This document shows positions 1 through 64,000 of a stretch of DNA of 64,000 nucleotides, piece after piece. The notes under the pieces were generated by a model. It searched no databases, was not told where the DNA came from, and saw only the letters and a program-made list of their open reading frames with translations. The position numbers and the translations under genes are program-made. Every line of letters starts with the position of its first letter. Position 1 is the stretch's first letter. The stretch lies in assembly GCF_054482595.1 (NCBI RefSeq), contig NZ_CM137008.1. The stretch is one strand, 5' to 3'.

Positions 1-1158
1 CTCAACGTCCGCGATGCGCTACGTGAAGTACCAGTTAAGCAATTAATCTTTCTCAGTTCGTTACAGGCCCCGCCACATGAGCAGTCGGATCATCTGCGTG
101 CTCGTCAGGCTACGGCGGATATTCTTCGTGAAGCAGGTGTCCCGGTGACCGAACTGCGGGCCGGAATTATCGTTGGCGCAGGTTCAGCAGCGTTCGAAGT
201 CATGCGCGATATGGTCTACAATCTGCCAGTGTTAACGCCGCCACGCTGGGTTCGTTCACGCACCACGCCCATCGCGCTGGAAAACTTGCTGCACTATCTG
301 GTGGCGCTGTTAGATCATCCGGCCAGCGAACACCGCATCTTCGAAGCCGCCGGACCAGAGGTGCTCAGTTATCAGCAACAGTTTGAACATTTTATGGCGG
401 TGAGCGGTAAGCGCCGCTGGTTGATCCCCATCCCCCTCCCCACTCGCTGGATTTCGGTGTGGTTTCTTAATGTGATTACTTCCGTACCGCCCACCACCGC
501 CAGGGCGTTGATTCAGGGGCTGAAACACGATCTGCTGGCGGATGACACCGCGCTACGTGCACTCATCCCACAACGGCTGATCGCTTTCGATGACGCGGTA
601 CGTAGCACGTTGAAAGAGGAAGAAAAACTGGTCAACTCCAGCGACTGGGGCTACGACGCTCAGGCCTTTGCCCGCTGGCGACCTGAGTACGGTTATTTCG
701 CCAAACAGGCGGGGTTTACCGTTAAAACGTCCGCCAGCCTTGCGGCTTTATGGCAGGTAGTGAACCAAATCGGCGGTAAAGAGCGTTATTTCTTTGGCAA
801 TATTTTGTGGCAGACACGGGCGTTGATGGACCGTGCGATCGGTCATAAATTAGCGAAAGGCCGTCCGGAGCGCGAATATTTGCAAACTGGCGATGCGGTG
901 GATAGCTGGAAAGTCATTGTCGTTGAACCGAAAAAGCAACTTTCGTTGTTATTTGGCATGAAAGCACCGGGGCTGGGACGACTGTGTTTTACCCTGGAAG
1001 ATAAAGGCGACTATCGTACTATCGATGTCCGCGCTTTCTGGCATCCGCACGGTATGCCGGGGCTGTTTTACTGGTTATTGATGATCCCCGCGCATCTGTT
1101 TATTTTTCGCGGAATGGCAAAACAAATCGCCAGACTGGCAGAACAAAGCACAGATTAA
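1..1158 (+). CDS. ybjT: YbjT, NAD(P)-binding protein; 5' end lies outside the window
   Basis: Frame 1 is open from base 1 to the stop at 1158 (ORF track shows only the part from the first internal Met at 145); position 99 bp upstream of ybjS matches K-12 synteny. Confidence 0.8.
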
Positions 1159-1256
1159 TCGACAAAACCTGCGTTATTCTTTCATGTTTCCCATTGCATC
1201 ATGGGGGAAATCACGGAAGAATGCGCACGTCATTTTCTCAACAACAGTGGATTGAT

Positions 1257-2270
1257 ATGAAGGTACTGGTTACCGGCGCCACCAGCGGCTTAGGTCGAAA
1301 CGCGGTAGAGTTTTTATGCCAGAAAGGCATCAGCGTGCGAGCGACCGGTCGCAACGAGGCAATGGGTAAATTGCTGGAAAAAATGGGCGCAGAGTTTGTT
1401 CCGGCGGATCTGACCGAGCTGGTCTCATCACAAGCTAAAGTGATGCTCGCGGGCATTGATACGCTGTGGCACTGCTCCAGCTTTACCTCTCCCTGGGGGA
1501 CACAACAGGCTTTCGATCTGGCTAACGTTCGCGCCACTCGCCGCCTGGGTGAATGGGCTGTCGCCTGGGGTGTGCGTAACTTTATTCATATCTCTTCTCC
1601 CTCCCTGTACTTCGATTATCACCACCATCGCGATATTAAAGAAGATTTTCGCCCTCACCGCTTCGCCAACGAGTTTGCCCGCAGCAAAGCAGCCAGCGAA
1701 GAAGTGATCAATATGCTTTCGCAGGCGAATCCACAAACGCGCTTTACTATTCTGCGCCCACAAAGTCTGTTCGGACCGCACGATAAAGTCTTTATCCCCC
1801 GTCTTGCGCATATGATGCACCACTACGGCAGCATTCTGTTACCGCACGGCGGAAGTGCGCTGGTCGATATGACCTACTATGAAAATGCAGTGCACGCCAT
1901 GTGGCTGGCAAGCCAGGAAGCCTGCGATAAGCTACCTTCCGGGCGTGTGTACAACATTACCAACGGCGAGCATCGCACACTGCGCAGCATCGTGCAGAAG
2001 CTGATCGACGAGTTGAATATTGACTGTCGTATTCGTTCCGTCCCCTACCCGATGCTGGATATGATCGCCCGCAGCATGGAGCGTTTAGGCCGCAAGTCAG
2101 CAAAAGAGCCGCCGCTGACCCACTACGGCGTCTCGAAGCTTAATTTTGACTTTACGCTGGATATTACGCGTGCACAGGAAGAATTAGGTTATCAGCCGGT
2201 CATCACCCTGGATGAAGGTATCGAGAAAACTGCCGCCTGGCTACGCGACCACGGAAAACTGCCGCGCTAA
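1257..2270 (+). CDS. ybjS: NAD-dependent epimerase/dehydratase family protein
   Basis: ORF 1194..2270; internal Met gives [16 protein letters not shown]ossmann N-terminus and 337 aa; 4-nt overlap with convergent amiD as in K-12. Confidence 0.85.
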
Positions 2271-3097
2271 TCCTGCCCGTATTTCTCCAGCAACGCTTCG
2301 GCAATTGCCTGAGTTTCTGCATCCGCTTCGCCGTTGTATAACGTCGGGCGGAAATGCATCTGGAACGCCATAATCACGCGCCGCTGCTCGCGCGGTCTCA
2401 TATCAGGTTTAACGTCATAACCGTAGCGCGCCAAAAGCTCCAGCAATGACGCGGTATCTACCGGTGTGTGCGGCGCGCGCCCGGCAAGGTAAAAGTTCAC
2501 CCGCTGCGCATCCGGCCAGGCACCAATCCCCTGCTGCGCCAGTTGCTGCCAGGGAAATAATGGCCCCGGATCGTCTTTGCGCTGCGGTGCGATATCCGCA
2601 TGTGCCACTACGTTTTCCGGCTTGATGTGATAACGGGCAATAATATCTTTCGCCAGTGGAATAAGCGCCTGAATCTGTGCCGGTTCAAACGGGGCAAAAT
2701 ATTTCACTCCGGCCGATTTTTGCCAGCCACGGTTTTCCAGCTCAATGCCAATAGAGGTGTCGTTAAGGCGCGTTGCCCCGCGCCAGGTGCTAATCCCCGC
2801 ATGCCAGGCCAGTTCTTGTTCCGGCACCAGTTGCCAGATGCGCGGTTTACCGTTGTATCGCGGTGGTACCGCAGGGACCAGATAATGCGAGCTGACCTGC
2901 TTATCGGTCAGTGTCGCCAGCGAGCTATCAAAATCATCTGCGGTGTAGTGGATCACCAGCACTTTAATGCGCGGATACGCCGCCTGCGCCTGGCGTCGGG
3001 TATCAAGCTGGTATCCCTCTTTCTCGACAATGCCTTTTTCGCCTGCACACCCTGCCAGTAACAGAGCGGCAGCGACCAGCCAGAAGACTCTTCTCAT
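2267..3097 (-). CDS. amiD: N-acetylmuramoyl-L-alanine amidase lipoprotein
   Basis: 276-aa ORF with lipoprotein signal LLLAGCAG; amidase-2 type sequence; synteny. Confidence 0.9.
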
Positions 3098-3417
3098 CGA
3101 CGCGTTTTCACCGCCGTACCGCTGACGCTAACCATCAGCATACTGCCGTTTTGCCCGACCGTTTCGTAGTCGATATCAATACCAACTACGGCATCGGCCC
3201 CCAGCGCCCGCGCCTGGGAGCCTAATTCCTCAAAGGCGATCTCCCGTGCTTTACGCAGTTCTTTTTCATACGCACCGGAACGTCCGCCAACGATATCGCG
3301 GATACCGGCAAAGAAATCACGGAAAATATTGGCACCTAAAATCGCTTCGCCGGTCACAACACCGCAATATTCAACGATGGTCTGGCCTTCCAGAGTAGGG
3401 GTTGTAGAAAATTGCAT
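3094..3417 (-). CDS. ybjQ: YbjQ family protein (UPF0145)
   Basis: 107-aa ORF overlapping amiD start by 4 nt; synteny. Confidence 0.85.
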
Positions 3418-63562: not shown

Positions 63563-63568
63563 AAACAA

Positions 63569-63597
63569 AAATCCGCCCCGAGAGGCGGATTTTTTTA
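63569..63597. terminator. Bidirectional terminator between opgE and ompX
   Basis: aaaaatccgccccgagaggcggattttttt: A-run, GC stem, T-run. Confidence 0.75.
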
Positions 63598-63611
63598 TAT
63601 CACCAAAGTGA

Positions 63612-64000
63612 TTAGAAGCGGTAACCAACACCGGCAATCCAGGTGCCTACGTCAACGCTACGAATACGGCTCTGCTCGTAAGAGAAGTCCAGAGCAACGT
63701 TTTCCATCGGGTTGAACTGCAGACCAGCACCGTAGGAGAAACCGTAGTCGCTGGTGTCGTGTTTGTAGGTCGGGTATTCAGTGGTCTGGAATTTACCATA
63801 ACCCACACCCACTACACCGTAGATGCTTGCCCAGTCGTTAATGCGGTAAGCCGGACCAGCAGTGATGCCGTAGTACTGGTTTTTGTTGTAGTCACCAGAG
63901 CTTGCAGTACGGCTTTTCTCGGTGTAAGTGAAAGAACCGATCACACCCAGCGGGCTGTTGTCTTCTTCATAGCGGTATTTCAGGTTGAAACCGCCCATTT
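63612..64000 (-). CDS. ompX: Outer membrane protein X; 3' portion only, start lies beyond the window end
   Basis: C-terminal beta-barrel sequence ending GVGYRF; ORF still open at the window edge. Confidence 0.85.
   Translation of the reverse strand, partial: MGGFNLKYRYEEDNSPLGVIGSFTYTEKSRTASSGDYNKNQYYGITAGPAYRINDWASIYGVVGVGYGKFQTTEYPTYKHDTSDYGFSYGAGLQFNPMENVALDFSYEQSRIRSVDVGTWIAGVGYRF

Follow-up and report, generated by a model that had tools for sequence, protein, structure and literature searches.

The DNA analysed here, a 64-kb stretch of contig NZ_CM137008.1 (assembly GCF_054482595.1; 64,000 nucleotides, hereafter the window, to which all positions refer unless another genome is named), is a segment of the Escherichia coli chromosome that runs from ybjT to ompX and matches E. 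coli XH990 (NZ_CP019359.1) and about 12 other complete genomes at 100% identity. Alignment to K-12 MG1655 by blastn showed the window to be colinear, in reverse orientation, with positions 850577-908009, and revealed exactly three large gaps over its whole length. These gaps correspond to three intergenic inserts, termed I1, I2 and I3, which are absent from K-12 and form the subject of this report. Their extents, as given by the blastn gaps, and the features in and beside them are as follows:

3488-6032: insert I1, 2545 bp, between the divergent genes ybjQ (minus strand) and ybjP (plus strand), replacing 37 bp of K-12.
3628-5427, minus strand: pentapeptide-repeat orphan gene of I1, a 599-aa open reading frame (ORF) with a GTG start.
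5428-6032, no strand assigned: non-coding part of I1, 605 bp, comprising the upstream region of the orphan gene and a new upstream region of ybjP.
6033-6098, plus strand: divergent patch linked to I1, at the 5′ end of ybjP (ribosome-binding site and signal-peptide codons).
10675-14189: insert I2, 3515 bp, between the convergent genes artJ and rlmC, replacing the entire 205-bp artJ/rlmC spacer of K-12, which contains a repetitive extragenic palindromic (REP) element.
10683-10714, no strand assigned: GC-rich hairpin between the convergent artJ and sulfatase genes, GCCGGAGTGGGCGAACACCCACTCCGGC, read from the window.
10725-12206, minus strand: sulfatase of 493 aa, cytoplasmic Cys-type (formylglycine), with PF00884 and SGSH_C.
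12218-12538, minus strand: IIB component of a phosphotransferase system (PTS), 106 aa, PF02302 at 42.9 bits.
12560-13903, minus strand: PTS IIC component, 447 aa, of the ascorbate (SgaT/UlaA) family, PF03611 (EIIC-GAT) at 326 bits.
13904-14182, minus strand: control region of the I2 operon, with a core of about 110 nt conserved between Escherichia and Salmonella in a six-sequence alignment.
25756-25834, plus strand: gene for the small RNA (sRNA) RybB, Rfam RF00110, 104 bits.
25842-26619: insert I3, 778 bp, lying between the RybB terminator and the rcdA stop codon, replacing 9 bp of K-12.
26009-26560, plus strand: solitary hexapeptide-repeat (left-handed beta-helix) acetyltransferase of 183 aa, PF00132 at 53.5 bits (cut-off 27).

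The sole Pfam matches of the five insert genes are a pentapeptide repeat, a sulfatase, PTS_IIB, EIIC-GAT and a hexapeptide transferase. Pfam searches of these genes and of the small ORFs recovered no integrase, transposase, insertion sequence (IS) or remnant of one in the inserts, and no tRNA lies anywhere in the 64-kb window. Junction alignments gave no convincing direct repeat at any of the three inserts; the best candidate, a 14/15 match at I3, has its right-hand copy 22 bp outside the junction. A preliminary description of this DNA had listed three K-12-absent intergenic inserts free of integrase, transposase, IS and tRNA, and had named IS or integrase remnants or direct repeats at the flanks as what would contradict it; nothing convincing of the kind was found, and the list stands. 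The same description had called for a comparison of composition, which gave 33.3% GC for I1, 46.7% for I2 and 40.6% for I3 against 51.1% for the window backbone. Low GC alone is no marker of K-12-absent DNA, because dgcI and pdeI (37915-41599, 42-43% GC) are AT-rich like the inserts and yet present in K-12; composition and absence from K-12 together neither date nor explain an insert. The claim that the inserts sit close to REP elements could not be sustained: it is true only of the K-12 allele at the artJ/rlmC site, and the nearest REP in the window (9685-9765) lies in the artM/artJ spacer and matches Rfam naRNA4. That REP region is polymorphic, with 9664-9733 missing in strains CH4793 and AR_0089.

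Most gene flux in E. coli takes place at a limited number of hotspots, where it spreads through homologous recombination in the flanking DNA. In other genera, the ybjQ/ybjP and artJ/rlmC spacers hold other cargo, including a two-component system, an acid phosphatase, a DUF1706 protein and a FadL-type protein, and are generic variable spacers. We read the three inserts, with a probability of roughly three in four, as independent presence/absence polymorphisms of differing age in spacers that vary across the Enterobacteriaceae, I2 being ancestral, I1 old but derived, and I3 a recent insertion of phage type. Their joint presence in this strain reflects lineage and no common age, origin or mechanism. 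The prevalence of each insert was determined in a sample of 5,426 complete E. coli genomes.

I3 was found in 70 of these genomes (1.3%), every copy at least 99.7% identical, and its sequence points to a recent insertion. Its gene is annotated as 'serine acetyltransferase', and the protein was considered as a CysE and rejected: it scores 71.5 bits on TIGR01172 (cut-off 210.65), lacks PF06426 and aligns to CysE structures only over residues 57-164, the beta-helix. It also falls below the EpsC and WcaB cut-offs. Over its full length the protein matches the phage family phrog_2154 (E = 5e-69), and its relatives stand beside tail-fibre assembly genes in P1-like elements (75%), an IncFII phage-plasmid (76%) and P2-like prophages (77% and 54%). 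The chromosomes of Citrobacter (between copA and cueR) and Pseudocitrobacter also carry solitary copies of the family. In other E. coli (loci L100-L102) a 208-aa paralogue, 47% identical, adjoins mntR at the edge of a tail-fibre-gene region, and the mntR-opgE spacer (60926-61978 in the window) is a prophage site in other strains.

The rybB/rcdA spacer that houses I3 is itself a prophage attachment (att) site. Comparison of attL and attR in strain 1008S13 showed that the att core of P2/186-like prophages, TGGGTTTTTTGTTA, is the 3′ half of the RybB terminator (terminator at 25820-25841). The rybB and rcdA flanks are split in about 1,130 of the 5,426 genomes (~21%); ogr-D-U-T lay beside rybB in all four split genomes sampled, and int lay beside rcdA in the one genome whose far end was examined. 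Integration of these P2/186-like prophages regenerates the RybB terminator, with the phage end supplying a replacement hairpin. E. coli HS has a P2-like prophage at 916-948 kb, which may occupy the same rybB site. An absence of mobility genes is hence not an absence of mobile-element biology. The earlier statement that the inserts lack mobility genes holds for the gene content of I3 and misleads as to its setting, since a phage-family gene here lies within an insert that starts 6 bp past a P2/186-like att core.

This short distance, the prophages present in four of four sampled split genomes, and the nature of the gene family, a typical phage moron, would all be expected if I3 were the last remnant of a nearly fully deleted P2/186-like prophage at the rybB site. 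We nevertheless regard that origin as unlikely. Core and insert are separated by TCTAAA, which is of the host attB type and not phage-derived, and no second copy of the core lies within I3, so that the insert has neither flanking core copies nor contiguity with phage sequence. Strain 100181 has an intact prophage integrated at the core, and its I3 is found outside that prophage, past the integrase end and before rcdA. In the P2-like relatives, moreover, the acetyltransferase gene is found mid-genome beside the tail-fibre genes and not at the integrase end, and the non-coding parts of I3 match no phage, plasmid or phage-plasmid, with distant blastn matches touching the coding part only (~73%). 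The left end of I3 was also tried as a duplicate of the rcdA 3′ end and rejected, its score lying within the shuffle range. I3 would thus be best described as an acetyltransferase 'moron' of a phage family that was inserted recently beside the RybB terminator; its product probably acetylates a surface polysaccharide, as the position of the family beside tail-fibre genes suggests.

I2 has a different history. It is present in 566 of the 5,426 genomes (~10%), and about 90%, K-12 included, are without it. A synteny scan that took one genome per species and used YbjP as bait yielded 80 syntenic loci; in Escherichia sp. MOD1-EC7003, S. diarizonae and S. arizonae (loci L008, L013 and L027) the artJ/rlmC spacer contains the same block of sulfatase, IIB and IIC genes. 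Nucleotide identity of the I2 genes to those of Salmonella is 78-82.5%, in line with the 75-86% of the flanking core genes. Synonymous divergence (dS) between Escherichia and Salmonella is saturated, like that of the flanks, and the ratio of nonsynonymous to synonymous divergence (dN/dS) is 0.01-0.05 (0.04-0.05 for the sulfatase, 0.01-0.02 for IIC). In S. enterica, the cluster of sulfatase homologues holds 4238 member sequences. Because I2 occupies the same site in Salmonella and Escherichia sp., has diverged as its flanks have, is under purifying selection and retains a conserved promoter core, these sequences indicate an ancestral operon, since lost from most E. coli. The preliminary description had proposed that the PTS-sulfatase insert is ancestral DNA lost from K-12, and its presence at one site in two Salmonella species and Escherichia sp., with flank-like divergence, vindicates that proposal. 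On this account I2 would date back to the ancestor that Escherichia and Salmonella share, and most E. coli would since have deleted it, keeping a shared terminator hairpin of 28 bp with or without a REP or bacterial interspersed mosaic element (BIME).

Both products were seen among the I2-negative alleles. One consists of a 28-bp spacer with a single shared terminator hairpin, and the other, the K-12 type, of the 28-bp spacer plus REP/BIME; the latter is also carried by E. albertii, Escherichia clade I and two more lineages of the genus (L005 and L006). A census of the site gave 3192 REP alleles, 566 I2 alleles and about 1,670 hairpin alleles, the last number by subtraction. Positions 899639-899843 of K-12 look like the 28-bp hairpin allele into which a REP/BIME pair was inserted with the hairpin duplicated on both sides (compared with loci L095 and L096). 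Other Escherichia species carry a REP pair at artJ/rlmC with the rlmC-side hairpin only. I2 itself falls into two allele classes, one at ~99% identity in 410 genomes, among them O157:H7 and O55:H7, and one at ~91% in 155 genomes. The classes differ at a dS of 0.43-0.81 where the flanks differ at 0.04-0.23, and the 91% class is 94.8% identical to another Escherichia species versus 90.7% to the window allele. At least one class was probably re-imported into E. coli by recombination, to judge from these distances.

An alternative is that I2 was inserted independently, or transferred later, into artJ/rlmC in Escherichia and Salmonella. Gut Firmicutes commonly carry the module, at 62-66% protein identity, so that it has crossed phyla at least once, and Citrobacter and more distant genera lack I2 at artJ/rlmC. 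Even so, we judge this improbable, given that the junctions are the same in both genera (the artJ stop codon and the last rlmC codons), that both share the truncated three-gene form with no regulator and no IIA, and that the promoter core is conserved and dS equals or exceeds that of the flanking core genes. Inheritance from the common ancestor, with later loss and probable re-import, remains our preferred history of I2.

I1, found in 1128 of the 5,426 genomes at 86-100% identity, is always chromosomal and single-copy. The empty ybjQ/ybjP spacer, 125 bp in length, is nearly base-for-base the same in K-12, E. albertii, three other Escherichia lineages and Salmonella, and holds 37 bp not found in I1-positive genomes; no trace of the I1 gene was detected in any outgroup locus searched. 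In Escherichia clade I, strain HH091_1A (locus L088) carries I1 with identical borders, its copy of the gene being frameshifted and 81% identical (19% nucleotide divergence) while the flanks are 94-97.5% identical. Because clade I carries I1 at identical borders with 19% divergence, the insert is not recent, and the sequences argue for a derived but old insertion. The proposal that both AT-rich inserts were acquired is accordingly supported for I1 as for I3, inasmuch as both are AT-rich and derived, and fails for I1 only if acquisition is taken to be recent. We picture I1 as a foreign, AT-rich, single-gene insertion into the conserved 125-bp spacer, which would have occurred before E. coli and clade I split or been exchanged between them, and whose gene has since evolved fast and been inactivated repeatedly.

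The flanks of I1 carry a signal of recombination. Next to the insert, the patch at 6033-6098 differs at 19 of 66 bp (~30%) from the closest I1-negative haplotype, CH4793, and mismatches are sparse beyond it. The YbjP N-terminus reads MRYRSLSL in I1-positive genomes versus MRYSKLTM in all I1-negative genomes and outgroups. Between the window and K-12, the 5′ two-thirds of ybjP (6051-6410, the first 360 bp) are 82% identical and the 3′ third 97%, a 5′ divergence within E. coli as large as that between Escherichia species. By identity to the window allele of ybjP, 1626 genomes fall at 95% or above, 659 at 90-95% and 3141 at 80-90%. On the other side, ybjQ of the window is K-12-like up to the I1 border, and other I1-positive strains have a divergent ybjQ. 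Because the divergent ybjP patch abuts I1 and the ybjP 5′ haplotypes are only 82% identical, the alignments suggest that the I1 haplotype was imported from a divergent relative by recombination. More generally, all three inserts most likely spread between lineages through homologous recombination in their conserved flanks, with no mobility function of their own.

Two further readings are very improbable. One would make I1 ancestral to Escherichia and the empty 125-bp spacer a recurrent product of precise deletion, in keeping with the 19% difference between E. coli and clade I and with the existence of partial deletions (locus L089; strain ST2747), but independent deletions would not recreate the same empty spacer, which is near-identical across K-12, E. 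albertii, three Escherichia lineages and Salmonella and contains 37 bp missing from I1-positive genomes, and no outgroup bears a trace of the gene. (Strain ST2747, H70 in our set, was also considered as a third cassette at this site and rejected, its assembly being ridden with frameshifts and carrying a deletion.) The other sees degraded genomic islands here, all three inserts having been brought in recently and horizontally by site-specific elements that later lost their mobility genes; this fits the AT-richness of I1 and I3 and the different cargo held by insert sites in other genera, and is contradicted by the orthology of I2 in Salmonella at flank-like divergence, by the 81% identity of I1 to its clade I counterpart, and by the lack of integrase or transposase remnants, of a tRNA or tmRNA site and of terminal or flanking direct repeats.

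Several observations weigh against our reading of three independent polymorphisms of differing age. No donor was found for I1 among the protein clusters, phages and plasmids searched, or for I3, two sequences of which had no match in exact-pattern scans of IMG/VR. As regards the insertion mechanism, no target duplications were seen at I1 or I3. Simple loss of I2 is complicated by its two deep allele classes, which suggest at least one re-introduction, and the synteny scan of 80 loci lacks S. bongori, the S. enterica representative, E. fergusonii and E. marmotae, which its peptide patterns missed. The functions assigned to all insert genes are predictions from their families, and I2 is without the IIA and regulator genes found in the Firmicutes version of the module.

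The three I2 genes are well defined as to family. The sulfatase scores 100.8 bits on PF00884 (cut-off 25), has the active-site motif C49-M-P-A-R53 in its translation and no signal peptide; its closest solved structures, distant and partial at E ~1e-22, are mucin-desulfating or GlcNAc-6-sulfatases and choline sulfatases. No maturase gene lies within I2, and formylglycine maturation of the sulfatase is predicted from the motif. The sulfatase also matches PHROG family phrog_19870 over its full length (E = 8e-197). A phage origin on that basis was rejected, the locus being chromosomal and orthologous in Salmonella, and the match probably stems from a prophage boundary drawn too wide in the data behind PHROG. 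IIB is UlaB-like at 42 bits against a UlaB cut-off of 138, and IIC scores 964 bits on NF009550 (cut-off 583) and 321 bits on the UlaA model (cut-off 380). IIC and IIB are not UlaA and UlaB orthologues, because both fall below the equivalog cut-offs. No IIA (EIIA_2) gene was found in I2 in either E. coli or Salmonella. Upstream of IIC, a terminator scan detected a palindrome at 14094-14129 with a near-perfect 16-bp stem, CGTGATCGATCG...CGATCGATCACG, inside the conserved core; it is likely an operator for a regulator encoded elsewhere. The hairpin at 10683-10714 is a probable bidirectional terminator, as judged from its sequence and position.

Homologues in gut Firmicutes place the operon in a larger context. 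There the sulfatase is 62-66% identical and the order IIC-IIB-sulfatase is kept, within modules that run, in order, DeoR-type regulator, IIC, IIB, sulfatase and IIA (metagenome contigs, loci L112-L115). Some Firmicutes sulfatases are fused to a PTS EIIA_2 domain in proteins of 635-643 aa, strong genomic evidence that sulfatase and PTS work together. We infer that the enteric I2 is a trimmed module that borrows its IIA and regulator from elsewhere, and that its PTS probably takes up and phosphorylates a sulfated, sugar-like compound, which the sulfatase would then desulfate in the cytoplasm. A more specific proposal, which we put forward tentatively and consider possible though doubtful, is that I2 is the enterobacterial trimmed form of an uncharacterised Firmicutes catabolic module coupling PTS uptake and phosphorylation to cytoplasmic desulfation, with ascorbate-2-sulfate or a sulfated hexose or hexosamine from host mucus as candidate substrates. 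If so, it would represent an apparently undescribed route for using sulfated host metabolites, kept by about 10% of E. coli including O157:H7. Literature searches returned nothing specific on the PTS-sulfatase operon. As a conserved, selected operon, I2 is the single lead among the inserts that is worth experiment.

The I1 gene is an orphan. With the likely ATG start at 5394 its product has 588 aa. The protein passes the pentapeptide-repeat family test by Pfam gathering score, its matches being limited to residues 365-468 (PF00805, 26.5 bits, cut-off 20.2; PF13599, Pentapeptide_4, 38.1 bits, cut-off 38). Full-length orthologues of 599-600 aa occur in many E. coli and in Shigella sonnei. Among 1.84 billion cluster representatives its own cluster alone matched over the full length, all other matches being confined to the repeat block. 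No phage homologue was found by tblastn, and three 'plasmid' matches were rejected as mislabelled chromosomes. A dN/dS of 0.19 relative to the CE0007a allele indicates that the intact gene is under purifying selection. Decay is common all the same: copies are split into two ORFs in O157:H7 EDL933, carry an internal deletion in a metagenomic E. coli (L089) or are interrupted by IS2 (H61). The RefSeq annotation pipeline (PGAP) calls the gene an incomplete pseudogene (4192-5427) in XH990 and CE0007a; the 599-aa ORF in the window is intact nonetheless.

Searches for a function of the I1 protein gave little. Its score for the Hailong effector HalA was 23.3 bits on NF051894 (cut-off 250), in the repeat region only, and PADLOC returned no match for the three proteins submitted to it, namely the I1 protein, the sulfatase and the I3 acetyltransferase. 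Against sequences in the PDB, only marginal pentapeptide-repeat matches were obtained (E of at least 0.06), and an AlphaFold2 model built on a shallow alignment of 15 sequences had a mean predicted local distance difference test (pLDDT) score of 46, too low to be of use in a fold search. The 605-bp non-coding part of I1 is 84-99% conserved across I1-positive genomes, and its ORFs of at least 30 aa have no Pfam match. Nothing specific on the ybjQ/ybjP gene was found in the literature.

Each insert has relatives among described systems. I2 resembles the L-ascorbate PTS (UlaABC/SgaTBA) in that its IIC belongs to the EIIC-GAT family and its IIB shares the lactose/cellobiose-type PTS_IIB fold; it differs in that IIC falls in a separate equivalog (NF009550), there is no IIA gene, and a sulfatase takes the place of the Ula lactonase, decarboxylase and epimerases. 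With the S1 formylglycine sulfatases, such as the mucin-desulfating enzymes of Bacteroides and the choline sulfatases, the I2 enzyme shares PF00884, the CxPxR motif and the metal-binding N-terminal strand, but it is cytoplasmic and coupled to a PTS. The I3 protein is of the same family (phrog_2154) as the acetyltransferases encoded by phage morons, with a putative role in lysogenic conversion, but its gene is solitary and outside any prophage. Integration of prophages into sRNA genes has been described, for example at ryeB and ryeE (Bobay et al. 2013, PMC3603311); rybB is not named in the passages of the prophage-integration literature that were searched. This likeness concerns the rybB site, and the I3 insert of the window carries no prophage.

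I1 recalls the EspX-type effectors of enterohaemorrhagic E. coli, when compared by description only: a protein of about 600 aa with a central pentapeptide block, encoded by an AT-rich single gene in a small K-12-absent island. Identity of the I1 gene with EspX2 (Z1019/ECs0876) was considered and rejected, the gene number being different and the locus too, as estimated from gene numbering. I1 and I2 lie at the same sites in O157:H7 EDL933, so that two of the three inserts were already contained in a long-sequenced O157:H7 genome. We liken them to the published O-islands by sequence presence in EDL933 only. The S-loops catalogued in the O157 literature (PMC2323221), like the O-islands of O157:H7, are small K-12-absent blocks between core genes, and the inserts described here show no difference in kind. 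Strain-variable inserts of this sort are thus already known, and those of the window are ordinary variation of the E. coli pangenome.

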